Assembly: GCA_963823885.1 (NCBI GenBank)
Contig: CAWGNL010000060.1
Location: 576 to 64,575, forward strand
Direction of reading: 5' to 3'
DNA: 64,000 nt
Source of the DNA: an uncultured bacterium
GTDB lineage: Bacteria > Armatimonadota > UBA5829
Shown here: positions 3,770 through 56,120 of the stretch, one piece after another
Position numbering within the stretch: position 1 is the first letter of the stretch
How the letters are laid out: the number at the start of each line of letters is the position of its first letter
Notes under the pieces: generated by a model
What the model was told of the DNA's origin: nothing
Database searches by the model: none
Seen by the model: the letters and a program-made list of their open reading frames with translations, nothing else
Position numbers and translations under genes: made by a program

Positions 3770-3791
3770 CTTCTCATTATTACAATGGTTA

Positions 3792-4145
3792 GTTTCGGGA
3801 TTTCCGGAGCGACTACGGCGTTTGTGCCATACTCGAACGGCCGTGCCCGCTCCTCAAATCCCGAAACACCGGCAAAAGAAACTCCCCAGTTTCGGGAACA
3901 AGATTCCCGAAACACCGGGGGGTGGGTTTCTTTCCAATGTAACGGCGACAGCGTCGCCGTCACTTGCTCAGGATGACATAATAGTTGCGCTAGTGCCTGT
4001 TGCGTTAACCCAACTTCCGCGCTACTCCGAACAGAGTTTCTTAGGAGCGTGTAGCGAGGAATCTCAACGCTGCGCCTGGATTCTTGTTCCGGTGCGTGAG
4101 GCTCATCCGAGCTTCGAGATCCCTCACATTCGTTCGGAATGACAG
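3792..4145. repeat. Repeat cluster: REPIN-B (3792-3870), one array-type unit (REP-A plus GC hairpin, 3875-3978), and an inverted gtcattccgaacgaa-type arm (about 4030-4145)
   Basis: Sequence identity to the other family members listed here. It fills the whole mtlD-DeoR intergenic space. Confidence 0.85.
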
Positions 4146-5116: not shown

Positions 5117-5359
5117 AAAGCAGCCCGGGGGCCTTGACCCTGGCCGGTGAATATGATATCATACGAACAGGTCAGCCGCCGAAGCGCACACACTCGCACG
5201 TTTTCAAATCAGGGGCTGGGGACTGGGGGCTAGGGAACCAGACGCCGGACCATCGTGCGCGGCGGTAGTTCCGGGCTTTCAGCTTTCCGCTATTTTTCGA
5301 ATGAATCAGGCATGAAGCCTCTGGCTTCACCACTATAGATAAAAAATAACCTCCGGAGA

Positions 5360-5437
5360 GTTTCGGGATTTCCGGAGCGAATACCACGTTTGTGCCCTAC
5401 ATAAACAATGGTTCGCTGCCTCAAATCCCGAAACACC
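5360..5437 (+). repeat. REPIN-B (GTTTCGGGATTTCCGGAGCGA ... GCTGCCTCAAATCCCGAAACACC) in the 5' leader of the E1 gene
   Basis: Long imperfect hairpin with the same arms as the copies flanking the RAYT. Confidence 0.9.
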
Positions 5438-5496
5438 GGGGGTGGCTGCCGTCCCTAACCGTTAAACCGACAACTATTTTCAGAGGAGTAACCAAA

Positions 5497-7737: not shown

Positions 7738-7773
7738 AGCCAAGGGGTCGAAGGTTCGGAAGGCTGAAAGTTC

Positions 7774-8522
7774 GGTGTTTCGGGATTTGAGAAGCGAGCA
7801 CAATCGTTCGAATAGGGTGCAGACATCTCAGTCGCTTCGGAAATCCCGAAACGAAACGGCTTTACGCTACAGGATCAAAGGCTCCAAGTCTAGTCCGACC
7901 GGTTCCCCGCGTTCATAAAACCGCCAACTCGAATGCTCCCAGTCTCCGGGAAGTTTCAACCAGTTTCCGCCTAACGGAATTGGCGTGGATGTAGTCGATC
8001 TTGGCATAAAGCTTCGGCTCGCTCCATACCGCGAGTGCGCGCACTTGCTCCTTCCACACGGCGTATTTGCAGCCACCGTTAGCGTGTGCGTCGAGGATTC
8101 CGAGCGTCTCAGTGTTGGCCTGTTTCTCCAGAAGCGCCGGGATGTGCCTGCCCGAGCGACCTCGCCACAGTTTGTTGAACTTGTGCGGCAGGCCGCTTTC
8201 GGGCAGATTTGCCAGCAGATGCAGGTGCTCGGGCATTATCACGAAGGCCGTGATCGACGCGCCGCAAACCCGCGCCGCTTCGGCGATATCGTCGTACACC
8301 ATCTGCCGGATATCCGGCCTGCTCAGCAGCGGCAGCCATTCGGTGATGGTCCCAGTGATGTAATAATACCCCGGCCCGATGTCGATGTTCTTCCATTTCA
8401 TCGTATGGCTCGGCCTCGTGTTCCCTGCGCGTTACGCGGCCTCGTTTCGGGATTTCCGGAGCGGACGGTAAATGCGCGTCCTCATCGTCACGCTGTGGCC
8501 GCTCCTCAAATCCCGAAACACC
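7774..8522 (-). mobile_element. RAYT locus: REP-associated tyrosine transposase gene bracketed by two inverted REPIN-B copies
   Basis: REPIN-B in reverse orientation at 7774-7862 and in forward orientation at 8444-8522, with the Y1 transposase ORF between them. This is the classical RAYT/REPIN arrangement. Confidence 0.85.
7913..8401 (-). CDS. REP-associated tyrosine transposase (RAYT; IS200-like Y1 HUH transposase)
   Basis: 162-aa ORF with HUH motif (MPEHLHLL) and C-terminal catalytic Tyr motif (IDYIHANSVRRKLV), as in the Y1_Tnp family. Confidence 0.85.
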   Translation of the reverse strand: MKWKNIDIGPGYYYITGTITEWLPLLSRPDIRQMVYDDIAEAARVCGASITAFVIMPEHLHLLANLPESGLPHKFNKLWRGRSGRHIPALLEKQANTETLGILDAHANGGCKYAVWKEQVRALAVWSEPKLYAKIDYIHANSVRRKLVETSRRLGAFELAVL

Positions 8523-8615
8523 GGACACAACGCTATCGGAAAAACCAGCCCGAGAAAAGCAAATGCTTGCAAATGCTGCTAACGCGATAAGTTGTCTAGT
8601 CTTGCACAATTCACA

Positions 8616-16185: not shown

Positions 16186-16266
16186 GTCTCGGGATTTCCG
16201 GAGCGAGCCAATGATGTTTCTGCCCTAGATTAACACCTGTGATCGCTCCTCAAATCCCGAAACACC
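16186..16266 (+). repeat. REPIN-B copy
   Basis: gtctcgggatttccggagcga ... tcgctcctcaaatcccgaaacacc. Confidence 0.9.
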
Positions 16267-16299
16267 GGGGGCAGGTTTTCCGCGGGGCGGAAGTCCGGA

Positions 16300-17822: not shown

Positions 17823-18294
17823 AGCCGCAACCAAGAAGGCCATCGCCGGAAAATCAATACGGCCTTTCCATAATTCGGAAGGTCGGTGGTTTCTTCTTAC
17901 GTATCTTACAACTGAAATCCGAGGTCACATATCAAAGTTCAGTACAGCTTGTATAGGATTTCAGTTGTAAGGTACTATCGCTTTTCCCCGGACTTCGCTG
18001 GGGAAAAGTGGCCACCTTACGGTGGCAGTTGACCAAGGCAGGCGGTCGGGTTTTTCGCTTTTCGGTTGTTAAGGGATGATTTGGAGGGGGCGGGATTCCA
18101 CCCCCGTCCCTTGAACAACACCTGAGTCGGCTCGGGAGGACTCCCCAGCGTTGCCCTACCCTCCGCCCAGGCAAAGCAAGTATAGCTCATCGGCCATCCC
18201 TTAACAACCATAAAGCGGAAAACCCAAAGGCGGTGCGCCGTCGAATCCGCCTTAGCGACAACAAATTGTTTCTAGGAGGGCGATAAGCGCCTAA
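17823..18294 (+). repeat. LR element copy 1 (about 470-bp structured non-coding repeat; left 15 nt missing)
   Basis: The L module has a 16-bp-arm hairpin CTTACAACTGAAATCC-N35-GGATTTCAGTTGTAAG. The R module has several hairpins and an approximately 29-bp long-range helix. By eye it is near-identical to the copies at 29463, 46587 and 47989. Confidence 0.9.
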
Positions 18295-18299
18295 CGCGG

Positions 18300-19278
18300 C
18301 TAAACCAACACCACGGGCTGGCCCGCACTGATGGACCTGAGCGCGGCTTCCGCTGATACGCACCGCCTCCAGAGCGTCTCTCGCCGTGATCTCGGCTTGC
18401 TTACCCTGTTCCAAACAGTCGATGAAATGTTCCAATTCCAGGTAATACGGGTCCTGGCCGCTGGGGGTCTCCGATATCACGAGGCCAGCGCGATCGGCAT
18501 CCATAGACTTCATCTCGATATTAAGCGGCGCACTCTCTTTGCTGGAATAGCTCAGCACCCCGTTGGTTCCGGCTATCTCCACGCACGTCTCGAAACCGCT
18601 GGGCCTTGCCCAGCTTCCCTCCACGTGAGCTATTGCCCCGCTTTGAAACCTGAGCGTGACCAGCGCGTAATCCGCTGACGGAACCCCCGATTCGACCGCC
18701 CGCGCAAAGACTCTGGTCACTCTTCCCAGGCTCCATCGCAGCCAGTCGAAGTCGTGGACCAACAAGTCCAGCACGACGCCGCCGCTGCGCTTGAAGTCCG
18801 CAAACCACCCCGCCGGCTGGCCCGAGCGGCGGCTGGTGCGCGCGACCATGGTTCTCCCACCGCTCCGCTGGCCACAAGGTCATGAAGCCTTCTGAACTCG
18901 GGACACCACCTCAAGACGTGCGCCACAAAAAGCTGTACCCCGGCCTCCTCGCACACACGCACGGCCTCCTGAGCTTGGCCAACCGTGCGAGCCATGGGCT
19001 TTTCCACGCACACGTGCTTGCCCGCGGCAGCGGCGGCATTTACGGAGTCGATATGGTTCGGGGTGGGCGTGCAGATATCGAGCATATCGACCTCGGAGTA
19101 TTTCAAGAGACTCCGCCAGGCTCGAAAACGGCTGAGCCCCGTACCGGGCGGCAAGCTCCTCAGTAGTCTCCATTATCGAATCACACACCGCAACAAGCTC
19201 GGCTTTCGGCATCCGAGCATAGGCCTCGCAATGGACTTTCCCAATCCCGCCAAGGCCAACGACAGCAACTTTCTGCAT
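18300..19278 (-). CDS. Gfo/Idh/MocA family oxidoreductase, second paralog (3 or more frameshifts)
   Basis: MQKVAVVGLGGIGKVH, HVCVEKPMA, and the C-domain ...DYALVTLRFQSGAIAHVEGSW. The pieces are 18880..19284, 18717..19154 and 18187..18849. The true tail ...AEAALRSISAGQPVVLV ends at TAG 18300-18302 after a shift near 18355. Confidence 0.75.
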
Positions 19279-19303
19279 CAGCACCCCCAGGTTAGAAATT
19301 AGA

Positions 19304-20412
19304 AATTAGAATCCGGACCCCTAACCCGCACAGGCCCCTGTTCGGGCGGATTTGCAATCCGGCCCGTAATGAGCAACCCGGGCATCTCTGATGCCCTACG
19401 GTTCGGCCCGGCAAATACGCACCGCTTCCCGCCACATACCCACAAGTCATGTCATTCCGAACGAACGTGAGGAATCTCCACCTATCGGTTGAATCTCACC
19501 TGCCGGAGCATACATTCCTGCGCAACGTTGAGATTCCTCACATTCGTTCCTAAGAAACTCCCCAGTTTCGGGAACAAGATTCCCGAAACACCGGGGGTGA
19601 AGAAACTCCCCAATTAGAATCCGGACCCCTAACCCGCACAGGCCCCTGTTCCGGCGGATTTGCAATCCGGCCCGTAATGAGCAACCCGGGCATCTCTGAT
19701 GCCCTACGGTTCGGCCCGGCAAATACGTACCGCTTCCCGCCACATACCCCACAAGTCATGTCATTCCGAACGAACGTGAGGAATCTCCACCTATCGGTTG
19801 AATCTCACCTGCCGGAGCATACATTCCTGCGCAACGTTGAGATTCCTCACATTCGTTCCTAAGAAACTCCCCAGTTTCGGGAACAAGATTCCCGAAACAC
19901 CGGGGGTGAAGAAACTCCCCAATTAGAATCCGGACCCCTAACCCGCACAGGCCCCTGTTCGGGCGGATTTGCAATCCGGCCCGTAATGAGCAGCCCGGGC
20001 ATCTCTGATGCCCTACGGTTCGGCCCGGCAAATACGCACCGCTTCCCGCCACATACCCCACAAGTCATGTCATTCCGAACGAACGTGAGGAATCTCCACC
20101 TATCGGTTGAATCTCGCCTGCCGGAGCATACATTCCTGCGCAACGTTGAGATTCCTCACATTCGTTCCTAAGAAACTCCCCAGTTTCGGGAACAAGATTC
20201 CCGAAACACCGGGGGTGAGTTTCTTTCCAATGTGACTGCGACAGTGTCGCTGTCAATTGCTCGGAATGACAGCCACGCGTTGGGCACTCATGATGCCTGA
20301 GCACTTGCCCAGCATAACGTTGAGATTCCTCACATTCGTTCCTAAGAAACTCCCCAGTTTCGGGAACAAGATTCCCGAAACACCGGGGGTGAGTTTCTTT
20401 CCAATGTCAACC
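19304..20412. repeat. Composite tandem repeat: three units of about 309 bp (19304, 19612, 19921) plus related degenerate copies up to about 20412
   Basis: Each unit holds small hairpins (cggatttgcaatccg, gggcatctctgatgccc), a long hairpin gaacgaacgtgaggaatctc-N52-gagattcctcacattcgttc, and a REP-A hairpin. The identical 101-aa pseudo-ORFs at 19447 and 19756 confirm the 309-bp period. Confidence 0.95.
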
Positions 20413-21773: not shown

Positions 21774-22038
21774 AACCCACTACACACCTTTCATTGCCAA
21801 GTCTAACCCGCATTATTTACGCGCCCATGTTCATTACGCCAATCGTCCGGCTGTTTCCTTCACAAGCCGCAAAAACCTTGTGTAAACCTTTCGCGCCCTG
21901 CTATAATACCCAATGGGCGAGGAAGTTGGCGAACCCGATCCGGCGTTCGGAGACGCCGGACCATCGTCCCGTTGTTTCGGGAAACCCTTCTCCCGAAACA
22001 GGGGGCTTGTTAGCAGCTTTCCACTTTCCGCTATCCGC

Positions 22039-22213: not shown

Positions 22214-24158
22214 ATGGATCGAACAATGACACTCAACCTTGCAAAAAAGATTATCCGCGAGCACCTCGTGGAAGGTGAAATGATTCCCGGTCGGGAGATT
22301 GCGATACGCATCGACCAGACCCTCACCCAGGATGCCACGGGAACAATGGCCTACCTGCAGTTCGAGGCGCTGGGAGTGCCGTCGGTGAAGACAAAACTCT
22401 CCGTGAGTTACGTAGACCATAACACCCTCCAGTCCGGCTTCGAGAACGCGGACGATCACGCGTACCTGCAGAGCGCCGCCGCCAAATATGGCGTCTACTT
22501 CTCCCTGCCGGGAAACGGCATCTGTCACCAGGTCCAACTGGAGCGCTTCGATGTGCCCGGCGACACCCTCCTTGGATCCGACAGCCATACTCCTACCGCT
22601 GGAGGCTTGGGGATGCTCGCAATAGGAGCGGGCGGATTGGACGTGGCCTCGGCGATGGCCGGACAGCCCTTCTACCTGCCGATGCCCAAAGTCTGCCTTG
22701 TCAGGCTGACCGGCAGCTTAAGGCCCTGGGTATCCGCTAAGGATGTGATCCTCGAAGTCCTGCGCATTCTGGGGGTAAAGGGTGGGGTCGGCAAGATTAT
22801 CGAGTACGGCGGGGAGGGAATCCGGAGCCTCTCGGCCACGGATCGCGCCACCATAACGAACATGGGGCCGAGCCGGCGCCACGACATCCATCTTCCCAAG
22901 CGACGATATCACGCGAGCGTTCCTCGCTTCTCAAAACCGGGAGGGCGATTGGAAGCAGGTATTGCCCGATCCGCAATGCGATTATGATGAAGTTATCGAG
23001 GTAAACTTAGACACACTTGAACCTCTAATCGCTATGCCCCACTCGCCGGACAATGTGGTAAAGGTCAGCGAAATCGAGGGGACGAAAGTCGATCAGGTGG
23101 CAATCGGCAGTTGCACCAACTCGTCCCTGCGGGACCTGATGGTCGTAGCCGGCGCTCTCAAAGGCAGGACCGTGCACCCATCGGTGAGCCTCGTGATATC
23201 GCCTGGGTCCAGGCAGGTGTTCGAGATGATCGCCAGGAACGGCGCGCTTGCGGAGTTGATATCGGCAGGGGCCAGATTGCTCGAATCCGCCTGCGGGCCG
23301 TGCATCGGAATGGGACAATCTCCCAAGACCAATGCGGTCTCCATACGCACGTTTCAACCGCAATTTCGAGGGTCGAAGCGGCACCGCGAGCGCTCAGGTT
23401 TACCTTGCCGGGCCGGAAGTCGCGGTGGCAGCCGCCATATACGGCGCGATTACCGATCCGCGCAAGCTGGGCGAGCCGCCTGTATTTCGAATCGCCGCAA
23501 AGCTACCTCGCCGATGACCGAATGGTGATACGGCCTTCGGATGAGCCGCGGTCGGTGGAAATAGTCCGCGGACCCAACATCAAGCCGCTGCCCACGAATA
23601 CCCCTCTGCCCGATACGATCTCAGGGCGGGTTCTGCTGAAGGTCCGCGACAACATTACAACGGACCACATAATGCCGGCGGGCGCCAAGGTGCTGCCGCT
23701 GAGGTCGAACATTCCGGCGATATCGGAGTTCGTCTTCACGGCGGTCGATCCTGAGTTCCCCAGGCGCGCCAGGAAATACCCGGGCGGAGTCATCCTGGCA
23801 GGCGAAAACTACGGCCAGGGTTCCTCGCGCGAGCATGCGGCGCTTGCTCCGATGTATCTGGGGATCAAGGCGGTAATCGCGAAGTCCTTCGCTCGGATTC
23901 ATCGCCAGAACCTGATCAACTTCGGCATCGTGCCCCTCAAGCTTGTCGATCCATCCGACTACGACAGGATCAGCCAGTCTCGACGACGTCGAAATACTGG
24001 ACATTGCGAGCGACCTCATAGACGGCTCGTCGATACTCGTCCTGTTGGACCACAATATCACGATGGGCTTTGAAGTCAGCCACGATCTCTCCCAGCGCGA
24101 GCGCGAAGTCATTCTGGCCGGCGGAGCTTTGAATTACATAAAGAGCAAGGCAAGCTAA
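22214..24158 (+). CDS. Aconitase-family hydratase, single-chain catalytic plus swivel domains (3 or more frameshifts)
   Basis: [29 protein letters not shown] and CGPCIGMGQ (Fe-S ligand motifs), plus swivel [17 protein letters not shown]. The pieces are 22214..22987, 22962..23528, 23111..24073 and 23943..24158. Confidence 0.8.
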
Positions 24159-26352: not shown

Positions 26353-26441
26353 CTGCCGCGGTGTTGTTTATAAAAGCACGACGTCGAAATCGAGCGCAAG
26401 GTGTTCCGTCTCCGAGATGCTGATCTTTTTTCGGACTTTCC

Positions 26442-26630
26442 CTGGGTGGCGATTTCCGAATCGCCACCCGAACGCCGAATAAGGGATTTCCGAATCCCGT
26501 GCTTTGCTTGTAGGTCAGGTAAGTCAGAAGGGTTTTTCAGTCCGCTCTGCGACTAGACGGATAGCGCGTTTTACCGGATTCGGAAAATCCGGCGGGATGA
26601 CGCGGTGGCGATTCGGAAATCGCCACCCAG
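26442..26630. repeat. Large palindromic REPIN-C: two inverted GGGTGGCGAtttccgaaTCGCCACCC hairpins, each with an inner smaller hairpin
   Basis: Left arm 26442-26469 and right arm 26604-26630 (ggtggcgattcggaaatcgccaccc). The inner pair is gggatttccgaatccc / ccggattcggaaaatccgg. Confidence 0.85.
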
Positions 26631-35178: not shown

Positions 35179-35182
35179 AGTG

Positions 35183-36300
35183 CAGGTGTTTCGGGAATCT
35201 TGTTCCCGAAACTAAGTGCGTATCGGGAACAAGATTCCCGATACACCGGCAAGAATACTATCAGCCATTTATGCAAGTAGGCACTAGATCCCCTATCGAC
35301 ACGTTGGTGAGGGCTTCGGGCCGCAGCTGAACTCTTGGGCGATTTGCAGGCGGCAATCGGATGGACCGGCCGTAAGCGATACGGCGTGCTTGCGCGAGAC
35401 GACAATACGCGGTGCAGGTGTTTCGGGAATCTTGTTCCCGAAACTAAGTGCGTATCGGGAACAAGATTCCCGATACACCGGCAAGCCACGACACTGATTG
35501 CGTGCGCAGCCGCGTGCTGCGTGGCGATGTGCGCCAGCAGCACAGGGCGGGCCGATTGCAGGTGTTTCGGGAATCTTGTTCCCGAAACTAAGTGCGTATC
35601 GGGAACAAGATTCCCGATACACCGGCAAGCCACGACACTGATTGCGTGCGCAGCCGCGTGCTGCGTGGCGATGTGCGCCAGCAGCACAGGGCGGGCCGAT
35701 TGCAGGTGTTTCGGGAATCTTGTTCCCGAAACTAAGTGCGTATCGGGAACAAGATTCCCGATACACCGGCAAGAATACTATCAGCCATTTATGCAAGTAG
35801 GCACTAGATCCCCTATCGACACGTTGGTGAGGGCTTCGGGCCGCAGGCTGAACTCTTGGGCGATTTGCAGGCGGCAATCGGATAGACCCGCCGTAAGCGA
35901 TACGGCGTGCTTGCGCGAGACGACAATACGCGGTGCAGGTGTTTCGGGAATCTTGTTCCCGAAACTAAGTGCGTATCGGGAACAAGATTCCCGATACACC
36001 GGCAAGCCACGACACTGATTGCGTGCGCAGCCGCGTGCTGCGTGGCGATGTGCGCCAGCAGCACAGGGCGGGCCGATTGCAGGTGTTTCGGGAATCTTGT
36101 TCCCGAAACTAAGTGCGTATCGGGAACAAGATTCCCGATACACCGGCAAGAATACTATCAGCCATTTATGCAAGTAGGCACTAGATCCCCTATCGACACG
36201 TTGGTGAGGGCTTCGGGCCGCAGCCGAACTCTTGGGCGATTTGCAGGCGGCAATCGGATGGACCGGCCGTAAGCGATACGGCGTGCTTGCGCGAATAGGC
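35183..36300. repeat. REPIN array: six REPIN-A' copies separated by two recurring spacers (A about 165 bp, B about 77 bp) in the order R-A-R-B-R-B-R-A-R-B-R-A
   Basis: REPINs start near 35183, 35413, 35556, 35700, 35935 and 36078. Spacers repeat almost exactly. All ORFs called here translate the repeats. Confidence 0.9.
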
Positions 36301-40190: not shown

Positions 40191-41813
40191 ATGAAGACAC
40201 AATCGAACAGGTCAAAGAAGACCGACGCACTCCCAAGAAAACAATCCGTTTCGGGAAAGGGGTTTCCCGAAGCAACTGAACAGTCCAAACGCCGCGGCAA
40301 GTTACCCTCCTGGCTGCCGGTGCTTCCTATCGCGATCGTCGCCTCGATCCTGATATTCTCCAATCTTGGAGACTCCAGCCTCTGGCAGGATGAAGCCGAA
40401 ACGGCGCTCGTCTCCAGGACCATCCTCACCCACGGAATCCCCCTCGGCTACGATGGGAAGAACTACTTCTCACAGCAGTTCGGCAAAGACACCAGCAATA
40501 ACCACGCTTGGAAATGGCACCCGTGGCTTCCGTTCTATGTGCTCGCCGGGTTCTTCGCGGTGCTCGGGATTAGCACGTTTGTCGCGAGGTTGCCGTTCGC
40601 GCTTTTTGGGCTGGGGACTGTTATACTCACCTATTTCTATGCGTTGACAATGTTCCGAAGCAGGCGGCTCGCCGTCTTTTCGGCCGCTGTTCTGGCCACA
40701 TCCATCCCGTTTCTCCTGCTTGCCCGGCAGTGCCGCTACTACGCCCCGGATATGTTCTTCTCCGTGCTGACCCTTTATGCCTATGACAATTTCCTCGAAT
40801 CCAAAGAGCGTTCGGACGTCGGCCTGTTCATATCGGCTACGTTGTTGTTCCACGTGGAGGACGTTCACTGCGCGGTGGTTTTGCTGGCGGCACTGGGGCA
40901 TTGCCTTCTACTCAGGCGCGACAAGTCACTTGCGCTGGGCCGGATATGCGTATGCATAGTCGCGGCGAATGCGCCCTGGATCTTTCGGGCTCCACCGGGC
41001 GGCTCAGGCGCTGGATTTCGGTCCCGCCGCCGCATGGCGAAGAGCCATGACGTTCATAGGGTTCGTTGTCTACTTTCCTGTGCGAAAGCGTTTTCCCCTG
41101 CTTGGGCTGTGGCTGCTCGTGCCCGCCGGGGGTTGCCGCACTCTCCAGGCGGCATCACGGGAAGCGGCTCATTATCGCGGACGCCCAGCCATTGCAGGCG
41201 GTCGCTATGCTCGGCGTGTTTGTGGCGCTCAGCATAGTGGTCAACGCTATCGCTTCGCAGGCTGCGTTCTTTGGGGTACGCTGGCCCCGGCTGTTCCGGT
41301 GTGCTGCATAATTGTTGGGCTCGTCATCAACTCGGTGGCGGAGATTCACCTGGGCCTGGGCCTGGCTGCATTCGCCGTCCTGATCTGCCTCAGCCCAATG
41401 AACGATTATCTCTATGAGATAACGCATCACTACTATGGCCCCATCGATGGGATCGTCAAGTTTCTCAACAAGAACGCACGGCCGGGCGATACCGTCGCAA
41501 TCACCTACGAGGATCTGCCCCTCAAGTCTACACCAACCTCAGGGTCGTGGGCGGACTGACCGGCGAGGACCTGTCTTCGGCGGGTAGCGCTAGATGGATC
41601 ATCCCAAAAAAGGCTAGTGGCCCCGAGACCCGCGCGGCACTGGCTTACCTGACCGGCCTAATACGCGAGCACCCATCGGACTACATGAAGATCGTCCTGG
41701 ACTGCCCGGACACCCCGTTCCAGAACCGCGAGGACCCGGACCAGCACTACTACAGAACCGATCAACACGCGGACCCGGTCACGATTACGAACGATGGCGA
41801 AGTTCAGTCATAA
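40191..41813 (+). CDS. GT-C fold membrane glycosyltransferase, ArnT/PMT_2-like, paralog 2 (2 or more frameshifts)
   Basis: DSSLWQDEAETALVSRT. The pieces are 40191..41237, 40969..41559 and 41547..41813. The C-terminal ...LDCPDTPFQNREDPDQHYYRT parallels ...LDYPDTPWENSEDPAFHNYRT of paralog 1. Confidence 0.7.
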
Positions 41814-41859: not shown

Positions 41860-42946
41860 CTAGGCGCTGCTCTTTAGCATCTCCGCCGCGAGGACCCCCG
41901 CCGCCGCCGCGCTAAGGAAGAACTCCTGGTCCTCTTCGAACGACCGGCCCATGCTCAAACATCTTGATCCCTTTTCCTGAAGCTCGATGATGCCGGGGCG
42001 GCCATCCACGATCCTGGTCCTGTGTTTGTAGCTGATGGCTGTGTGGTTCGATCTGCTCCTGAATCGAAAGCAGCCTCATCTGATCCATCATCGGGAGCGC
42101 GAGCACGCACTTGGTGAGGGCGATCGTGCCCAGAGACGTGATTGTGTGGTGGCTCAGGCCCTGGTGCCGGGGCCGCGGGTCCGAGAAACTGATCCGCGCA
42201 ATCGCAATCGCCGATCCGCCAAGAATGTTCACGGCGTTCACGATCTGCCCCTGCTCGATCGATGAAAAGCCGAAAGTCGTGCCGGTGCCGGCGTTGCCCG
42301 GACCGGGACAGACGATTGCGACATCGGCCTGCGCGGCCTGCTTCGCCGCGATCAGCCCAGTGTAGATATTGATCGCCTCGAGATTGCCGCCAAACGCCTG
42401 TCCGACGGTAATAGTGGTGTCGAGCAGCCCCTTCCGAATGAGTTCGTGCACCGACCTGCTGAACGACAGCGGCAGGGCGGCGGTGTCGGTCATGATATAT
42501 GCAACGCGGGCGTGGGGATGCGCGAGGCGCTTCACGGCGGCGGCCGCGGGCGCGAGCTGAGAGTGAAGCTGCCCCACGACAATCGGCATCGCGCCGAGGC
42601 TCCGGAACCCCTGGATGGCCGCCCGGTGCCCGGAATCTTCCTCCTCCACCGAGAGAACCGTGTGCTGCACAGGGGTGTAACGGGCCTTCATGACGTGGCC
42701 CTCTTCGACGTCGCCGGAAATCTGCTCGCCGAGATTGGCCATCACAAAATGATATCCGCCCGAGCCGAGCCGCTTGACCACCGCCGTGGTGTTCAAGAGG
42801 ACCTCGTCACCGGCGCGGACATCCCCCACGAGGCTTGCGTACGCGATGGCTCGGCACCTCACCCCGGCGATATCGACCGTGATCTCCACCGCGTCCCCTC
42901 GGATGGCATCTATCGACTCCACGCGCCCCCGCGCCCGGGTAAGCAA
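41860..42946 (-). CDS. DUF3866-family protein (C-terminal frameshift)
   Basis: The 344-aa ORF 41912..42946 resembles the DUF3866 family. The tail is restored in another frame (...IVDGRPGIIELQEKGSRCLSMGRSFEEDQEFFLSAAAAGVLAAEMLKSSA), ending at TAG 41860-41862. Confidence 0.6.
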
Positions 42947-42948
42947 GG

Positions 42949-44078
42949 CTAATCCTCCACTCCGGCCGCGACCTCGATCAGGGCCCGAGCGTATTCGGCG
43001 GACTTCACGAGTTCGTCCACGGCGATGCTCTCGGTGGGACTATGGGGATGCTCATAGCCGACACCGATTATCACCGACGGCACTCCGCCGAGGTTAAAGA
43101 CATTGGCGTCGCTGCCGCCGCCTCCATCCACAAGTTGAGGTTCGATTCCGACATTCCGGCAGGCCGCCGCCGCCACCTTGACGACCTCGTCGCTCTCGGT
43201 CCAGCAAAACGCGCTGTATTCCCGACAGGACTTTACCTCTGCCCTCGCGCCGATCTTCGCTGCTTCCTCCTCGAAAAGCGCCTTCATGTGAGCGACCTGA
43301 GCCAGGAGTTTTTCCTCGCTGCGACTGCGGGCCTCGGCCCTGATCGTGACCGTCTCGGGGATGATATTTCGGGCCTTTCCGCCCTGGATGACCCCAATGT
43401 TGGCGGTCGTTTCCTCGTCCACGCGGCCCAGGTTCATCCTGGAAATCGCCCTCGACGCCGCTACAATCGCGCTGACACCCTCCTCGGGCGCAATTCCCGC
43501 ATGCGCGGCCTTGCCGGTGATCTCGACGGTAATGTTCTCGTGAGATGGCGCGCTGACGATAATTCCGGCGGTGGGGACTCCGCTGTCAAAAACGTATCCC
43601 AGTCTCGCCCCTCATTCCGGAAAGGTCCAGCGACTTCGCTCCCAACAACCCCGTCTCCTCGCTCACGTCGAGCAGTATCCTGATATCGCCGTACGAGACC
43701 CCGCTCTCCAGGATAGACTCGACTCCCTCGATTACCGCCGCGATACCGGCCTTGTCATCCGCGCCGAGGATCGTCCTCCCATCAGACCTTATCACCCCCT
43801 CGTCCACAACCACGTTCAGACCGTCAGTGGGTTCCACCGTATCCATATGGCAGCAGAAGAATATCTTCCTGGCATTCGCGGCGGTCCCTTTCCTGAAGGC
43901 AATTACATTGCCCGCATTACCGCCGATTTGGGTTCCCGCATCGTCTTCCTCGACCTCGAAACCCAGAGAGCAGAGCTTTGCCGCGACGTAGTCCGCCACA
44001 CCCCGCTCGCACTTGGAGGGAGAGTTGATCCCAACCAGGATCGAGAAAAAGCCGAATAACGCGATCCTTATCAGCCAT
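42949..44078 (-). CDS. M20/M25/M40-family metallopeptidase (peptidase T-like; 2 or more frameshifts)
   Basis: CCHMDTV and ILGADDKAGIAAV metal-ligand motifs, plus C-terminal GGGSDANVF. The ATG at 44078 gives MADKDRVIRLFLDLVGINSPS once one extra base at about 44030 is removed. Confidence 0.8.
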
Positions 44079-45270
44079 GATTTACCTCTAACGATTCATC
44101 CCCTGGGTGGCGATTTCCGAATCGCCACCCCACCCCCCGTTGTTTCGGGAAACCCCTTTCCCGAAACGCACTCCGCAACCCACCGCCGTACAAACACCCT
44201 CGTTTCGGGATTTCCGGAGCGACTATAACGTTCGCTCTATGCTCGGACGAAAGTGCTCGCTCCTCAAATCCCGAAACACCGGCGTTGAATAACGCGATCC
44301 TTATCAGCCATTGATTTACCTCTAAGATTCATCCCCTGGGTGGCGATTTCCGAATCGCCACCCCACCCCCCGTTGTTTCGGGAAACCCCTTTCCCGAAAC
44401 GCACTCCGCAACCCACCGCCGTACAAACACCCTCGTTTCGGGATTTCCGGAGCGACTATAACGTTCGCTCTATGCTCGGACGAAAGTGCTCGCTCCTCAA
44501 ATCCCGAAACACCGCACCAGATCGAGAAAAAGCCGAATAACGCGATCCTTATCAGCCATGATTTACCTCTAACGATTCATCCCCTGGGTGGCGATTTCCG
44601 AATCGCCACCCCACCCCCCGTTGTTTCGGGAAACCCCTTTCCCGAAACGCACTGCGCAACCCACCGCCGTACAAACACCCTCGTTTCGGGATTTCCGGAG
44701 CGACTATAACGTTCGCTCTATGCTCGGACGAAAGTGCTCGCTCCTCAAATCCCGAAACACCGGCGTTGAATAACGCGATCCTTATCAGCCATGATTTACC
44801 TCTAAGATTCATCCCCTGGGTGGCGATTTCCGAATCGCCACCCCACCCCCCGTTGTTTCGGGAAACCCCTTTCCCGAAACGCACTGCGCAACCCACCGCC
44901 GTACAAACACCCTCGTTTCGGGATTTCCGGAGCGACTATAACGTTCGCTCTATGCTCGGACGAAAGTGCTCGCTCCTCAAATCCCGAAACACCGCCGTTG
45001 AATAACGCGATCCTTATCAGCCATTGATTTACCTCTAACGATTCATCCCCTGGGTGGCGATTTCCGAATCGCCACCCCACCCCCCGTTGTTTCGGGAAAC
45101 CCCTTTCCCGAAACGCACTGCGCAACCCACCGCCGTACAAACACCCTCGTTTCGGGATTTCCGGAGCGACTATAACGTTCGCTCTATGCTCGGACGAAAG
45201 TGCTCGCTCCTCAAATCCCGAAACACCGGCGTTGAATAACGCGATCCTTATCAGCCATGATTTACCTCGT
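44055..45270. repeat. Tandem array, five units of about 233 bp plus a partial sixth. Each unit holds three different REP hairpins plus a copy of the SD and first 8 codons of the M20 peptidase gene.
   Basis: Unit starts are at 44055, 44288, 44535 (with an extended gene fragment from 44516), 44768, 45001 and 45234. The hairpins are GGGTGGCGAtttccgaaTCGCCACCC, GTTTCGGGAAAccccTTTCCCGAAAC and a REPIN-B. Confidence 0.95.
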
Positions 45271-46300
45271 CAATGTCACCTTGCTCAGTCCTCGAGGCTG
45301 GTCCGGGTTGTAACCCCTGGTCACAGTCATGTAGTAAGCGAACAACTGCGCTGGTATTATGTAGATCAACGGGCTCAACTCTTCGTCCACGTGGACGGGG
45401 ACCTTGAAAGCCGTCCTGGCCGACGCCAGCACCTCCTCGACGCTGCTCACGACCAGGTTCTCCGCGCCACGCTCTCGCAGGACGCCCGCTATATTCGCCA
45501 TGGACTCATACGCCTTCCCCGGTGGAATGAATAAGAAACACGGGTCCCCTTCGTGAACGGCGGCAATTGGCCCGTGCAGGAAGTCCGCCGCCGAAAAGGC
45601 GTTCACCCCGATGTAGCTTGTCTCCTCCAGCTTGAGCGCGGCTTCCCGAGCGGTGCAATAGTTGAGGCCGCGCCCCACGAAATAGCCCTCACGCATATAT
45701 CGGTATCGTTCGGCCCGCTCGGCAATGCAATCGTGAGTCTCCAAGACGCGGCTCATCGCATCGGCTGTGGCAAGCAGCGAATCGATGCCGAGACACCCCC
45801 CGCAAAGCGACGCGCTCAGCAAATAGAAGCAGGCAAGGGTGGACGTATAAGTCTTCGTCGCGGCAACCGCGTTTTCCTTGCCCGCGTGGCAATGCAGGGT
45901 GTGGTGGGCGATCTTGGTGATTGTGGAAGCCGGTTCGTTAGTTATAGCCAGGGTCAGCGCACCGGCCTTTTTAGACTCCTCGAGGTATTCGGCCACATCC
46001 GGCGCCTGCCCCGACTGTGAGACCCCGATAACCAGCGCGCGATCCAGCTTGAGCCTCGCTTCGTAAAGCGTGAAAACCGAGCAATCGGCGAGCGCCACGG
46101 GCAATTCGTTCCTGATCTCCATGAGGGTCCTTGCCATAGATCCCCGCGTGGTCCGAAGTCCCGCGCGCCGCTATGACGGCAAAGCTCACGCCGCGTTCCA
46201 CACACTGCCTGGAAACCTCGGCCGCGGTCCGCCGCTCCGACTCGACAATCTTCGCGATTGCCTCGGGCTGATCGTTGATCTCGTCCAACATTACCGACAT
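45262..46300 (-). CDS. SIS-domain sugar-phosphate isomerase/deaminase-like protein (GlmS C-terminal / AgaS-FrlB type; frameshift near 46140)
   Basis: AVIAARGTSDHAG, VIGVSQSGQAPDV and the tail ...GYNPDQPRGLSKVTLTR. The pieces are 45971..46300 and 45262..46137. Confidence 0.75.
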
Positions 46301-46479
46301 AACGCAATATACCCTCAGAATAGTCGAAGGTCGAAAGTCAAAAGTCGGGAACCCGCCAGCCCTGAGTAGGCCCGAGGAACGAGGGCCGTATCGAAGGGCG
46401 GTCGCAGGGATCCCTCCTAGCTCAACGGATCTCCGTTTCCATCAACGCTATTCCTTCGCCAGCGACCCCGAGCAATCCT

Positions 46480-46524
46480 CCAAAACGCGCAAAGACCGCG
46501 GAAAAGACATTTCCGCGGTCTTTG
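46480..46524 (-). terminator. Possible Rho-independent terminator
   Basis: Perfect 15-bp stem caaagaccgcggaaa-agaca-tttccgcggtctttg. On the minus strand it is followed by cgcgTTTTgg, so the U-tract is short and offset by 4 nt. Confidence 0.4.
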
Positions 46525-46586
46525 TACAATCGCTAATTCGACGAATTTTGAATTGAAGAGAGTTCTACCGGATCGCCGGTCCCTTC

Positions 46587-47036
46587 CCCAAGGCGGCGCA
46601 GCCGCAACCAAGAAGGCCATCGCCGGAAAATCAATACGGCCTTTCCGTAATTCGGAAGGTCGGTGATTTCTTCTGGCGTATCTTACAACTGAAATCCGAG
46701 GTGACATGTCAAAGTTCAGTACAGCTTGTATAGGATTTCAGTTGTGAGATACTACGCTTTTCCCCAGACTTCGCTGGGGAAAAGTGGCCACCTTACGGTG
46801 GCAGTTGACCAAGGCAGGCGGTCGGGTTTTTCGCTTTTCGGTTGTTAAGGGATTTGAACAACACCTGAGTCGGCTCGGGAGAGCTCCCCAGCGTTGCCCT
46901 ACCCTCCGCCCAGGCAAAGCAAGTATAGCTCATCGGCCATCCCTTAACAACCATAAAGCGGAAAACCCAAAGGCGGTGCGCCGTCGAATCCGCCTTAGCG
47001 ACAACAAATTGTTTATAGGAGGGCGCTAAGGGGCTA
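46587..47036 (+). repeat. LR element copy 5 (full, with an approximately 35-bp internal deletion of one hairpin)
   Basis: It reads ggttgttaagggatttgaacaac where other copies carry the gggatgatttggagggggcgg..ccacccccatccc hairpin. The right end overlaps the TAG stop of gene 47034..47825. Confidence 0.9.
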
Positions 47037-47825
47037 ATTCCCCCCGCCTGCTCCGCCAAAGCCACGCCCACCGCCGCGACCTCCAAAGGCAGGAATCAGA
47101 CCCTGACTGCGCAATGCCTGCATTGTAGCACTCATCGTTTGCTGATACTGAGGGTCCTGGAACAAGCTGCGCTGAGCGTTGAATTGGTCGAGCACCATCT
47201 GCTGGCGGTCGGAGGGGTCCATGTCCATGACGTATTTCGCCTCGGACTGCAGCGCGCTGACGCGCTGCTCGGAGGTCATCTTCGACAGCAACTGCATTCG
47301 CTCGGTCTCGAGCGCAGTCAGCTTGGACGCGGCGTTCTTGCCATCATCGGCTTTCCGCTTGGAAATCAGGTACACCAGCTTCAGTCCGAGCTTGTCCGGG
47401 TCCAGGGTTGGAGCAGTCGATTCCTGCTCCACGAACACCTTCTGCTTGCCTGATGAATCGCACACCACGATCGGGCCGGAGATAGCCGCAACCGCGGCGG
47501 CGCGGGCCTTGATCTGATCGGCGCTCAGCGGTTTGTCCTTGTCCGGCACGGGTAGATACAGCTTCTGCCAGATAAGATCATTCTGCTTGGTGAGCGTATC
47601 CAGAAGCTTGTCGAGTTCCATCGACTCGAAGTGCCCGGTCAGGTTCTTCTTCAAGTCCGCATCGCATATGATCTGCACGCCGGCCTGCTTTCCGATATCC
47701 GCCATGGCCTCATCGAAGGGAGTCGCATTCGCATCCAAATTGACTTTGGGAGCATCGGCCGCGACAACCCCGCAAGCAAGACATACAAAGAGGATGACAA
47801 CGCCAATGATAGTTCCAATCTTCAT
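47034..47825 (-). CDS. Secreted hypothetical protein with a Gly/Arg-rich C-terminus
   Basis: Signal peptide MKIGTIIGVVILFVCLACGVVAA (ATG 47825), a coiled-coil-like middle, and the tail GGRGGGRGFGGAGGGN. Confidence 0.5.
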   Translation of the reverse strand: MKIGTIIGVVILFVCLACGVVAADAPKVNLDANATPFDEAMADIGKQAGVQIICDADLKKNLTGHFESMELDKLLDTLTKQNDLIWQKLYLPVPDKDKPLSADQIKARAAAVAAISGPIVVCDSSGKQKVFVEQESTAPTLDPDKLGLKLVYLISKRKADDGKNAASKLTALETERMQLLSKMTSEQRVSALQSEAKYVMDMDPSDRQQMVLDQFNAQRSLFQDPQYQQTMSATMQALRSQGLIPAFGGRGGGRGFGGAGGGN

Positions 47826-47988
47826 TTCCGTTTCGCCTTTTTCCTTTCCCCCATAGGGTATACGCCAAATCAGCCACAATTACCCGTTGACTCTTTAGAC
47901 GCCGCACCCGCATACCTGGTTACATTACTGGCCGATAGGAGCTAGGGTCAGACGCCCCCTTCCCTTCCCCATATTCTAACTCCTATCT

Positions 47989-48474
47989 CCTAAAGCGGCG
48001 CAGCCGCAACCAACAAGGCCATCGCCGGAAAATCAATACGGCCTTTCCATAATTCGGAAGGTCGGTGGTTTCTTCTGGCGTATCTTACAACTGGAATCCG
48101 AGGTCACATATCAAAGTTCAGGTACAACTTGTATAGGATTTCAGTTGTAAGCGCCTACGCTTTTCCCCGGACTTCGCTGGGGAAAAGTGGCCACCTTACG
48201 GTGGCAGTTGACCAAGGCAGGCGGTCGGGTTTTTCGCTTTTCGGTTGTTAAGGGATGATTTGGAGGGGGCGGAGATTTCCACCCCCATCCCTTGAACAAC
48301 ACCTGAGTCGGCTCGGGAGAGCTCCCCAGCGTTGCCCTACCCTCCGCCCACGCAAAGCAAGTATAGCTCATCCGCCATCCCTTAACACCATAAAGCGGAA
48401 AACCCGAAGGCGATGCGCCGTCGAATCCGCCTTAGCGACAACAAATTGTTTCTAGGAGGGCGCTAAGCGCCTAA
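47989..48474 (+). repeat. LR element copy 6 (full length)
   Basis: The right end ...ggagggcgctaagcgcCTAa contains the TAG stop (48471-48473) of cdd. Confidence 0.9.
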
Positions 48475-48881
48475 CTCCCATCCCTTAGCTCGAATCGCAT
48501 CGGCAAGTAATCGTCCAGTGATAATGTGTCGTAGGCTCCGTCCGCCGCGGCGGCCACTATCACGGTAGGGCCATCCTTAGAGGCGAACTCCGAGAGCACC
48601 TGCAGGCAGGCCCCGCACGGCCTCGCGATTTCGTCTTCCCCGGCCACCACAACCAGCGCGCGGATTTGCGTCTCGCCCTCGAAAACGGCTCTAAGTATCG
48701 CGACGCGCTCCGCGCACACTGATAGAGAGTAGGAGGCATTTTCCACGTTGCAGCCGAAATACACTTTGCCGGACCCGCCCATCGCCGCGGCCCCAACCTT
48801 GAACTTCGAATATGGCGCGTAGGCCGTCTCCCTGGCATTCATCGCGCCCGAGAGCATTTCAAGCAGAGCTGTTTCTTCCAT
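48471..48881 (-). CDS. cdd: Cytidine deaminase
   Basis: Zinc motifs CAERVAI and PCGACLQ. The start MEETALLEML at ATG 48881 gives a tetrameric-type size of about 136 aa. Confidence 0.85.
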   Translation of the reverse strand: MEETALLEMLSGAMNARETAYAPYSKFKVGAAAMGGSGKVYFGCNVENASYSLSVCAERVAILRAVFEGETQIRALVVVAGEDEIARPCGACLQVLSEFASKDGPTVIVAAAADGAYDTLSLDDYLPMRFELRDGS

Positions 48882-48973
48882 GTATAGCTCCGGGAAAGAA
48901 AAAGAGGAAAAGACCAAGCTAGATCCTTTCCTCTTCCTCTCTATTCTTGGCACAAGTGGGGTTCTCGGTTCAT

Positions 48974-49258
48974 CTACTCAGTCGACTTGAAGTAGTAGCC
49001 AAGTGCAAAGCCGAGCGGCCCACCAACTATAGACGCCAGCCTGGTGATTAGTTGCAGCGACTCGGCAAACGTCAAGATACCAGCGATCTCCATAATAACG
49101 GGAACCAGGATAGACGCAATGAAGAGAGCAAGTAACCCGATGGCCAGCCCCGCACGGGTGCTCTCGCGCCTGTGAGGCAGGGAGCGGGTTGTCCTGCGCT
49201 CATAGTCCGTAAGGGAAATGGGTTGAGAGGTCTCCTGAGGCTCTGTTTCGTCACTCAT
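48974..49258 (-). CDS. Small membrane protein (hypothetical)
   Basis: 94 aa with two predicted TM segments (AIGLLALFIASILVPVIMEIAGI; ASIVGGPLGFALGYYF). ATGA overlap with the upstream ORF. Confidence 0.45.
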   Translation of the reverse strand: MSDETEPQETSQPISLTDYERRTTRSLPHRRESTRAGLAIGLLALFIASILVPVIMEIAGILTFAESLQLITRLASIVGGPLGFALGYYFKSTE

Positions 49259-49514: not shown

Positions 49515-49590
49515 TGGTGGAGGCTAGCGGGCTCGAACCGCTGACCTATTGCGTGCAAAGCAATCGCTCTCCCAACTGAGCTAAGCCCCC
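49515..49590 (-). tRNA. tRNA-Ala (anticodon TGC), CCA encoded
   Basis: The reverse complement GGGGGCTTAGCTCAGTTGGGAGAGCGATTGCTTTGCACGCAATAGGTCAGCGGTTCGAGCCCGCTAGCCTCCACCA folds as a cloverleaf. The anticodon loop is TTTGCAC. Confidence 0.95.
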
Positions 49591-49597
49591 GTTTTAT

Positions 49598-49674
<77 letters not shown>

Positions 49675-49988: not shown

Positions 49989-50128
49989 ATGCGGTGACGT
50001 GTAATCATGATCCGCGAGGTGTTACATCGGGTTCAAGGTTGAAAGTTAAAGGTTGAAGGTTGGGGAAGGGAGGTACCCACTCCGATGGGTGGCGATCTCA
50101 GAATCGCCACCTATCCAGCGATGAAACT

Positions 50129-51112: not shown

Positions 51113-51845
51113 ATGTCATTCCGAACGAACGTGAGGAATCTCGACCTATCGGTTGACTCTCACATACCGAAGGATGATACAGGCGCAACGTTGAGATTCC
51201 TCACATTCGTTCCTAAGAAACTCTCTTCGGAGGAGCGCGGAAGCTGCTTAATGCAGAGGGCACTAGTGTCTACTTGCATAAATAGCTAATAGTATTCTTG
51301 CCGGTGTATCGGGAATCTTGTTCCCGATACGCACTTAGTTTCGGGAACAAGATTCCCGAAACACCCGTTACAGCATTCTATCAATCAATTATGCAACTAA
51401 GCACTAGCACAACGATTACGTCATCCTGAGCAAGTGACCTCGGCGTTGCCGGTGTATCGGGAATCTTGTTCCCGATACGCACTTAGTTTCGGGAACAAGA
51501 TTCCCGAAACACCGGGGGTGGGTTTCTGCCGGTGTATCGGGAATCTTGTTCCCGATACGCACTTAGTTTCGGGAACAAGATTCCCGAAACACCGGGGGTG
51601 GGTTTCTTTCCAATGTAACCGCGGCAACGCCGCGGTCACTTGCTCCTAAGAAACTCCCCAGTTTCGGGAACAAGATTCCCGAAACACCGGGGGTGGGTTT
51701 CTTTCCAATGTAACCGCGGCAACGCCGAGGTCACTTGCTCCTAAGAAACTCCCCAGTTTCGGGAACAAGATTCCCGAAACACCGGGGGTGGGTTTCTTTC
51801 CAATGTAACGGCGACAGCGTCGCCGTCACTTGCTCGGAATGACAT
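51113..51845. repeat. Nest of repeats: a 207-bp-type element interrupted by three REPIN-A' copies (51299, 51448, 51528) and extended by two extra array-type units
   Basis: The left TIR atgtcattccgaacgaacg is at 51113 and the right TIR cacttgctcggaatgacat ends at 51845. The 60 bp beyond it (gatttacgacggctgtggcagaaccagcaccgcgcctcactgtgggatggtagtgaac) also follows the array at 2486-2545. Confidence 0.85.
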
Positions 51846-54255: not shown

Positions 54256-54318
54256 ACTAGATTATACACGCGCCCCCGCAGGCTGGCAACGAGTACAACC
54301 GATCGATGCGGCGCAGAA

Positions 54319-54489
54319 GGAGACCAGGACGAATTTGCCGGTGTATCGGCAATCATGCTCTCGATACGTAGCAGTTTCGGGAACAAGATTCCCGAAACAC
54401 CCAAGGAGGCCAGGACGAATTTGCCGGTGTATCGGGAATCATGCTCTCGATACGTAGCAGTTTCGGGAACAAGATTCCCGAAACACCCA
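54319..54489. repeat. Two tandem 85-bp units containing a degenerate REPIN-A'
   Basis: aggag(a/g)ccaggacgaatttgccggtgtatcgg.aatcatgctctcgatacgtagcagtttcgggaacaagattcccgaaacaccca occurs twice. Confidence 0.9.
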
Positions 54490-54560
54490 ACCCAACACCC
54501 AAATTCCAAATGTTGAATTTAAGGGAGCCCCTGTCCGATCGCCGCATCCCTTCCCCCAAT

Positions 54561-55970: not shown

Positions 55971-56049
55971 GTTTCGGGATTTCCGGAGCGAATGTGACGT
56001 CCGCCCCATATGCGAAGGAGAGTGCTCGCTCCTCAAATCCCGAAACACC
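55971..56049 (+). repeat. REPIN-B in the 5' leader of GT2 gene 56121
   Basis: gtttcgggatttccggagcga ... tcgctcctcaaatcccgaaacacc. Confidence 0.9.
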
Positions 56050-56120
56050 GGGGGTGGCGGCCGGTCCCTAACTGTCAACCGTCAACTGAGAACCGACAAC
56101 TATTTTCCAAGGAGCGACAC

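Follow-up and report, generated by a model that had tools for sequence, protein, structure and literature searches.

Structure of the repeat array between the SIS and M20 genes

The window analyzed here, a 64,000-nucleotide stretch of contig CAWGNL010000060.1 (assembly GCA_963823885.1) from an uncultured bacterium of the phylum Armatimonadota, carries a tandem repeat array between a gene for a SIS-domain protein and a gene for an M20/M28-type peptidase (M20). The initial annotation of this DNA, made from the sequence alone, had described a 233-bp repeat present five times at this junction, and Tandem Repeats Finder (TRF) located the same array at 44054-45268 with a period of 233 nt, 5.2 copies, 95% matches, and a score of 2228. 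TRF also reported a second period at the array, 481 nt in 2.6 copies with 97% matches. Both neighbors are encoded on the minus strand, and read on this strand the order was the SIS gene, five units each consisting of a 35-nt junction segment (A) and a hairpin block (B), a terminal A, and the M20 gene. The units measured 234, 232, 233, 248, and 233 nt from the SIS side and were approximately 99% identical, and their alignment contained four variable columns, with a C/G difference at unit column 154, and one 15-nt block, located in the fourth unit from SIS. The array is a locus-specific minisatellite, in which a cluster of hairpins resembling repetitive extragenic palindromes (REPs) occupies a junction of a conserved operon that once measured 3 nt.

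Segment A reads GAGGTAAATCATGGCTGATAAGGATCGCGTTATTC on the coding strand and GAATAACGCGATCCTTATCAGCCATGATTTACCTC on the plus strand. It contains the last arginine codon of SIS and its TAA, a GAGG Shine-Dalgarno (SD) sequence, a 3-nt spacer, an ATG, and eight M20 codons (MADKDRVI). Six copies were located in the array and none elsewhere in the window, which agreed with the earlier description of a motif that opens every unit with the SD sequence and the first eight codons. Both gene ends lie in this motif, as had been claimed: the complement of the SIS stop codon TAA is at 45262-45264 and the M20 start codon is at 44078. B is flanked by a direct duplication of the junction, namely A, and as a result neither gene has lost its end: the stop codon of SIS is retained, as are the SD sequence, ATG, and first codons of M20. 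The array and its junction segments were as follows, all on the minus strand.

44054-45268, minus strand: whole tandem array, five units (A + B) and a terminal A, from TRF and unit dissection
45234-45268, minus strand: A1, SIS-proximal junction copy with the true SIS stop, a decoy SD sequence (GAGG), and a decoy ATG at 45258
45000-45035, minus strand: A2, internal junction copy with an extra A ahead of the ATG, opening a 15-aa decoy open reading frame (ORF)
44768-44802, minus strand: A3, internal junction copy, opening a 15-aa decoy ORF
44535-44569, minus strand: A4, internal junction copy, opening a 20-aa decoy ORF together with the extension at 44516-44534
44516-44534, minus strand: 19 nt of extra M20 coding sequence (codons 9-15), in one unit only, reading GATCTGG where the gene has GATCCTGG
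44287-44322, minus strand: A5, internal junction copy with an extra A ahead of the ATG, opening a 15-aa decoy ORF
44054-44088, minus strand: A6, M20-proximal junction copy with the functional SD sequence and the M20 ATG (44078)

The SD sequence and ATG were intact in all six junction copies. The decoy ORF of A1 was 15 aa long and terminated at the TGA at 45211-45213. Four decoy ORFs encoded MADKDRVIQRRCFGI (15 aa), so that the decoy start giving a 15-aa peptide was borne out at the level of the sequence, and the remaining one encoded MADKDRVIRLFLDLVRCFGI (20 aa). This longer product belongs to the unit in which the initial annotation had seen a gene fragment reaching codon 15, and this fragment was recovered as the junction copy at 44535-44569 joined to the gene sequence at 44516-44534. 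Every decoy ORF (5 of 5) ended at a TGA within the 5' arm of the first hairpin of B.

Ancestral adjacency of the SIS and M20 genes

The genes flanking the array are the first two members of a three-gene block, all on the minus strand.

45262-46300, minus strand: SIS-domain gene (GlmS-isomerase-like), with one frameshift near 46130 and its stop codon TAA (45262-45264) inside A1
42949-44078, minus strand: M20/M28-type peptidase gene, in three frames as assembled, with frameshifts near 44047 and near 43595
41912-42946, minus strand: DUF3866 gene, third in the conserved block, with one frameshift near 42050

As assembled, the SIS gene was covered by the ORFs 45262-46137 and 45971-46300, and the orthologue from the relative L001 matched it by tblastn at 80% identity in two frames. 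The frameshifts in SIS and M20 had escaped the initial annotation. The SIS protein (PF01380) had thousands of 345-aa homologues, among which the named ones were all from metagenome-assembled genomes (MAGs) of Armatimonadota, and the best match other than itself was 80% identical. In one relative with 80% amino acid identity (L001), the gene order was SIS (5226-6263), M20 (6268-7395), DUF3866, and NlpC/P60, and the M20 orthologue was a protein of 375 aa with Pfam domains PF01546 and PF07687. When the proteins of L001 were compared with the window by tblastn, SIS, M20, and DUF3866 were found in the same order together with the upstream neighbor g4195, and the NlpC/P60 protein had no tblastn match in the window. 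The order SIS-M20-DUF3866 was found in three more relatives, with gaps between SIS and M20 of 4 nt (L002), 3 nt (L099), and 3 nt (L100); two other relatives had a different gene after SIS.

The junction sequences were ACG AGG TAG ttta ATG in L001 (ACGAGGTAG-ttta-ATG), ACG AGG TGA acag GTG in L002 (ACGAGGTGA-acag-GTG), ACG AGG TAA cct ATG in L099 (ACGAGGTAA-cct-ATG), and ACG AGG TAA gca ATG in L100 (ACGAGGTAA-gca-ATG). The junction of the window, put together from the outer halves of the array, was ACG AGG TAA atc ATG (ACGAGGTAA-atc-ATG). All four relatives thus had the same context of the SIS stop codon, ACG AGG followed by the stop, which doubles as the SD sequence of M20. Since these four relatives hold SIS-M20-DUF3866 with a gap of 3-4 nt and a common junction, comparison of the orthologous loci indicates that SIS and M20 were adjacent ancestrally and were then split by the array. 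The initial annotation had reached the same view, namely that the array split and multiplied a once tight junction. The ancestral junction was presumably translationally coupled, with the SD sequence of M20 lying within the last codons of SIS.

The surroundings of the block differed in another respect. Two relatives had the gene order MutS2, dCMP deaminase, mannitol dehydrogenase, SIS, with mannitol dehydrogenase as the immediate upstream neighbor of SIS. In the window, mannitol dehydrogenase (2591-3853) was approximately 42 kb from SIS (45262-48977 for the SIS region), and dCMP deaminase was still near SIS. The gene orders indicate a rearrangement in the lineage of the window.

Hairpin families of block B

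Block B comprised approximately 198 nt and three hairpins per unit. Hairpin 1 was 76 nt long with 21-nt arms (GTTTCGGGATTTGAGGAGCGA / TCGCTCCGGAAATCCCGAAAC), hairpin 2 had an 11-bp stem (GTTTCGGGAAA-GGGG-TTTCCCGAAAC), and hairpin 3 also had an 11-bp stem (GGGTGGCGATT-CGGA-AATCGCCACCC). Folding of a single unit as RNA gave -101.4 kcal/mol compared with -76 ± 4 for shuffled sequences (z = -6.2), and exactly these three hairpins were predicted. The five blocks were as follows, with the hairpins of each in the order 1, 2, and 3.

45036-45233, minus strand: B1, hairpins 45149-45224, 45089-45114, and 45052-45077
44803-44999, minus strand: B2, hairpins 44915-44990, 44855-44880, and 44818-44843
44570-44767, minus strand: B3, hairpins 44683-44758, 44623-44648, and 44586-44611
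44323-44515, minus strand: B4, hairpins 44435-44510, 44375-44400, and 44338-44363; its SIS-side end joins the extra M20 fragment in a novel junction
44089-44286, minus strand: B5, hairpins 44202-44277, 44142-44167, and 44105-44130

Sequences of all three types were dispersed in the window. Solo copies of the hairpin 1 type were located at 3792-3873, 5360-5439, 7773-7854, 8440-8524, 16189-16268, and 55971-56051, those of the hairpin 2 type at 21968-21999 and 40247-40276, and those of the hairpin 3 type at 26440-26469, 26604-26630, and 50086-50111. The 9-mer GTTTCGGGA occurred 130 times in the window, where 0.9 occurrences were expected. Within the window, the composite B, like the linkers that separate its hairpins, was found at the array locus only. 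The pattern GTTTCGGGA...TCCCGAAAC, which includes hairpin 2, was present among the matches listed in many other MAGs of Armatimonadota and in some of other phyla, and near-matches to hairpin 2 (92-97%) were found in loci taken from several Armatimonadota MAGs carrying this pattern. The hairpin 1-type family (approximately 80 nt) combined the conserved 21-nt terminal inverted repeats with a divergent center of approximately 34 nt, which gave it the look of a miniature inverted-repeat transposable element, and its six solo copies in the window had no visible target duplication.

As short imperfect palindromes with many dispersed extragenic copies in the window, these hairpins correspond to the usual description of REPs. 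According to Di Nocera et al. (2013, PMC3733652), a GTAG or CGTC tag at one end of the palindrome marks the two large REP superfamilies. By inspection, neither tag was present in the aligned hairpin copies, which started with GTTTCGGG or GGTGGCGATT and were flanked by CCGGTG or CCCAG. A Pfam search of the 50 window ORFs of at least 130 aa found no domain of a REP-associated tyrosine transposase (RAYT) or other transposase, in a search space of 64 kb with indel-fragmented genes. No Rfam family matched the array in a meaningful way, and the whole window had matches to two tRNAs only; these were two adjacent tRNA genes on the minus strand at 49518-49674. The hairpins are REP-like in behavior and lack the tag of the REP superfamilies. 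The earlier assignment of the three hairpins to three REP families stood as far as three families dispersed in the window are concerned; as REPs in the strict, RAYT-mobilized sense they are candidates.

Several other hairpin arrays were observed in the window. At 1-2477, a 98-nt unit was repeated 25.5 times, with higher-order periods of 291 and 389 nt, and ran off the left end of the window; its unit contained the hairpin GTTTCGGGAACAAGATTCCCGAAAC and a second hairpin (TAACGGCGACAGCGTCGCCGTCA). At 35180-36300, a hairpin doublet (GTTTCGGGAATCTTGTTCCCGAAAC-TAAGTGC-GTATCGGGAACAAGATTCCCGATAC) alternated with spacers X (approximately 170 nt) and Y (approximately 80 nt), arranged as X Y Y X Y X, and the last X continued into the unique flank at approximately 36290, which is a second case of a flank co-amplified with hairpins. 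For the 10-mer ATGGCTGATA in the X spacer, identity with the M20 gene start or a target site common to both arrays was considered and rejected: since X-type sequence recurs at 51263-51300 as ...AAATAGCTAATAGTATTCTT..., it belongs to another repeat family, and the 10-mer match is due to chance. At 19304-20218, a 309-nt unit with several hairpins occurred three times with 98% identity, directly upstream of the point where a GFO/IDH/MocA oxidoreductase gene begins (ATG complement 19276-19278). Two further stretches, 51250-51835 and 54317-54490, held short arrays of hairpin doublets, the periods being 80, 95, and 86 nt. Outside the window, intergenic multi-hairpin tandem arrays were found in other long-read assemblies of Armatimonadota, namely an uncultured Armatimonadia MAG, MFD04716.bin.2.274 (L007, 5245-5824, 202 nt in 2.9 copies), and L037 (1832-2116, 142 nt in two copies). 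Because these assemblies carry them too, multi-hairpin arrays characterize the lineage and are not confined to the genome of the window.

Quality of the assembly at the array

The L001 proteins matched the window with 76-80% identity over the main segments and 67-71% over shorter ones, and their alignment revealed one frameshift in SIS, two in M20, and one in DUF3866, with conserved protein on both sides of each. Single-base frameshifts thus occurred approximately once per kb in this block, and at least two of them sat at GATC. Other genes of the window were also split: an aconitase gene into 22214-22987 and 23021-24073, and the GFO/IDH/MocA oxidoreductase gene into 18187-18879 and 18880-19305. 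The M20 shift beside the array (codon 13, at approximately 44047) consisted of an extra C in GATCCTGG, at a position where the array copy has GATCTGG in frame, and the DUF3866 shift was likewise at a GATC. The pattern suggests systematic, motif-linked indel errors of a long-read assembly and not pseudogenes. The shift at codon 13, which is contradicted by the in-frame copy of the same sequence in the array, is probably an artefact, and the M20 gene is probably intact, its frameshifts being artefacts. Single-base indel differences between the units (ATCATGG versus ATCAATGG, and ATCGTTAG versus ATCTTAG) may be errors as well.

These errors raised the question of whether the array, or most of its copies, was an artefact of a noisy long-read assembler, the real genome having zero or one B block. 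The frequent frameshifts in conserved genes point to poor base-level quality, and two of the four variable columns are single-base indels after ATC, resembling the frameshifts at GATC. However, substitutions and the 15-nt block, which is unique and creates a novel junction, separate at least four types of unit, and this argues against an array made by the assembler. Both flanks of the array join the conserved genes correctly, the 1.2-kb array is shorter than typical long reads, and similar arrays recur in the window and in other long-read Armatimonadia MAGs. An assembly artefact is therefore very unlikely.

Predicted consequences for expression

The initial annotation had called effects on coupling, mRNA stability, and translation of the peptidase gene likely, and such effects are plausible. 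In the present arrangement, the SIS gene, the array, M20, and DUF3866 would still be co-transcribed, through 1.2 kb of strongly folded RNA. The translational coupling of M20 to SIS would be lost, and termination of SIS translation would now feed the first decoy ORF. From the sequence, ribosomes could start at the five decoy SD-ATG sites and produce peptides of 15 or 20 aa that end inside hairpin 1. Structure prediction placed the SD sequence and AUG of M20 in the last copy within a weakly structured stretch, outside the strong stems; independent initiation of M20 is therefore possible, and M20 may be translated in this way from the last, unstructured copy. Intercistronic REPs of enterobacteria shield the upstream mRNA from 3'-5' decay and lower the relative expression of the distal gene. 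By analogy, the hairpins of the array would probably act as barriers to 3' exonucleases, which would raise the ratio of upstream to downstream (SIS to M20) expression and leave processed 3' ends at the hairpins.

An alternative is that selection has made the array a regulatory device, namely an attenuator or rheostat with a variable copy number that tunes M20 and DUF3866 relative to SIS, with the leader-like 15-aa ORFs ending inside hairpin 1 and alternative GTTTCGGGA/TCCCGAAAC pairings adjusting expression. Such a device would account for the stop of every decoy ORF in the 5' arm of hairpin 1 and for the intact SD sequence and ATG in six of six copies, and hairpins 1 and 2 have arm sequences in common that would allow alternative pairings. 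However, the near-identical units reflect recent amplification, and since the copies barely differ anywhere along their length, the conserved SD sequence and ATG do not speak for selection. Moreover, the four relatives have no such structure at all, the array has no terminator-like hairpin followed by a T-run, and many comparable arrays of the genome contain no gene junction. We consider a regulatory device improbable; most likely, the array is tolerated genomic clutter in a hairpin-rich genome and not a designed device.

Origin and amplification of the array

The explanation that we favor, and regard as probable as a whole, is that a hairpin cluster was inserted in a way that restored the ends of both genes and was then amplified by unequal recombination or slippage. 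A first A-B-A structure would have formed either when the junction underwent a short tandem duplication, into which hairpins were inserted later, or by a template-switch insertion that re-copied 35 nt. A simple insertion into a 3-nt spacer, with the SD sequence located in the upstream gene, would not regenerate both ends, and for this reason A-B-A would have survived: in it both gene ends are regenerated, and selection would keep only such an outcome. Growth to five units would then have occurred by unequal homologous recombination or replication slippage, together with one event of 481 nt. In this scheme the first A-B-A is a conjecture, and the later steps can be read, with some confidence, from the units themselves. 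Since the units are approximately 99% identical, the amplification was recent or the units have been homogenized.

Formally, A-B-A is also what an insertion with target-site duplication produces, and we considered B as a mobile element that makes a target-site duplication of approximately 35 bp, or that targets start codons or operon junctions in the manner of mycobacterial interspersed repetitive units (MIRUs), which have been reported to insert at start codons with coupling preserved (PMC12548453). However, at the solo hairpin sites (arrays excluded) the longest direct repeat between 70-nt flanks was 5-9 nt, the same as at random positions, compared with 35 nt at the array. Because the solo hairpins have no flanking duplications above chance, the 35-nt duplication is peculiar to this locus and does not characterize the hairpin elements. 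In addition, neither the rest of the window nor the other loci retrieved contained the composite B, in which three hairpin families that are unrelated to one another are combined with unique linkers, and the 50 window ORFs contained no transposase or RAYT domain. Mobility of B as such an element is thus unlikely.

For the favored insertion and amplification, the second TRF period provided further detail. The segment 44039-44519, which extends from M20 codon 15 through two units, repeats at 44520-45000 with three differences in 476 nt outside the junction. The novel junction, at which ...CCCGAAACACCG is followed directly by CACCAGATCGAG..., joins B to M20 codon 15 and was found nowhere else. 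The longer gene fragment fits the footprint of a later 481-nt tandem duplication with a non-homologous breakpoint in M20 codon 15 and the other near the end of B. This footprint shows that illegitimate tandem duplication acts at the locus and can capture coding sequence. As possible microhomology at the secondary breakpoint, ATCCCAAC of the gene resembles ATCCCGAAAC of B, although several bases separate this match from the join. The filler that separates A from hairpin 3 was considered as a longer remnant of the SIS 3' end and rejected, since approximately 5 of 13 positions were alike by eye, as expected by chance. An exact-protein look-up of the SIS product of the window returned no record, and a contig scan with the hairpin pattern gave, among the matches listed, other species only.

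Several points weigh against the explanation or limit what can be drawn from it. Both B copies in each 481-nt half carry a common C/G variant, which a simple duplication does not predict, and gene conversion is needed to account for this sharing within each half. No copy that could have served as donor for the composite B or its linkers is present in the window, which bears on the origin of the first A-B-A, and scans of JGI metagenomes with the B linker and with junction A gave 0 matches, leaving no conspecific in which polymorphism or the order of events could be followed. Indel errors were many (SIS, twice in M20, DUF3866, aconitase, and the GFO oxidoreductase), and the copy number of the units and some of their single-base differences are given as assembled. 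On the functional side, all consequences proposed above are extrapolated from REPs and from coupled genes. A scan of both strands of the array revealed neither a sigma-70-like promoter nor an intrinsic-terminator consensus (a hairpin with a trailing T-run). This result is compatible with read-through transcription, and the sigma-70 consensus used may not fit the promoters of Armatimonadota.

Comparison with known repeat systems

The TRF result, 233 nt in 5.2 copies, gives the array the head-to-tail arrangement of a minisatellite and makes it a candidate VNTR (variable-number tandem repeat). Among the closest counterparts were the tandem REPIN clusters of Pseudomonas fluorescens SBW25, where tandem repeats "including the flanking sequences" form 16 clusters of up to four units (Bertels & Rainey 2011, PMC3116915). 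Both consist of near-identical head-to-tail hairpin units that carry non-repeat flanks, extend over hundreds of bases with few units, and occur in repeat-dense genomes. In contrast to these clusters, the flank co-amplified here is a functional gene junction (stop, SD sequence, ATG, and eight codons), each unit has three hairpin families instead of one REPIN, the phylum is Armatimonadota, and neither a GTAG/CGTC tag nor, among the ORFs scanned, a RAYT gene is evident.

In Mycobacterium, start codons are reported as insertion sites of MIRUs, and the downstream gene remains coupled (PMC12548453; PMC3184786). The array shares with MIRU-VNTRs (Supply et al. 1997; PMC3184786, PMC12548453) tandem units in an intercistronic operon junction, co-oriented with the genes, as well as a short ORF per unit and the preservation of flanking stop and start signals with little damage to expression. 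However, MIRU units are 40-100 bp, compared with 233 nt here. Furthermore, the MIRU ORF is borne by the element, spans the whole unit, and overlaps the neighboring stop and start codons, whereas the ORF found here is copied from the start of a host gene, has 15-20 codons (48-63 nt), and leaves approximately 170 nt of hairpins untranslated.

Clusters of REPs, also called BIMEs (bacterial interspersed mosaic elements), in malE-malF and hisJ-hisQ (Higgins 1982, Stern 1988, cited in PMC3184786) are likewise stable palindromes within a polycistronic mRNA. They differ in that the enterobacterial BIMEs fill pre-existing intergenic spacers, and the gene ends are not duplicated. The regularly spaced 35-nt direct repeats also bear a superficial likeness to a CRISPR array. 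This assignment was rejected, as the "spacers" are the same 198-nt hairpin block (approximately 99% identical) and the repeat is a gene junction; no Cas domain was found by Pfam among the scanned window ORFs, and no CRISPR-DR family matched in Rfam. The locus thus resembles tandem REPIN clusters and MIRU-VNTRs yet is a member of neither, and it is an unusually clear case of known repeat behavior, not a new class of system.

A further idea, which we rate as a long shot, is that hairpin composites may spread by a replicative mechanism that copies tens of flanking bases, and that the resulting arrays then provide tunable operon control, analogous to that of MIRUs. If such a long-target-duplication or template-switch mode were real, the decoy SD-ATG mini-ORFs and hairpins would constitute a heritable, copy-number-tunable control that evolved independently.

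Under the insertion and amplification that we favor, the locus is a composite hairpin minisatellite in which a functional operon junction was duplicated. Few descriptions of such repeats exist for this phylum, and the locus is a neat illustration that would not surprise specialists. It offers a natural before-and-after pair, the coupled 3-4-nt junction of the relatives versus 1.2 kb of hairpins and five decoy starts at the same point. The comparison shows how repeat clutter can invade even a zero-length intergenic space without destroying either gene, and that coding sequence can be captured when hairpin clusters are amplified in tandem. If the copy number varies in populations, the array could be used as a strain marker, and it could also be a test bed for the effects of REP-like hairpins and decoy starts on operon polarity in a phylum that has received little study.

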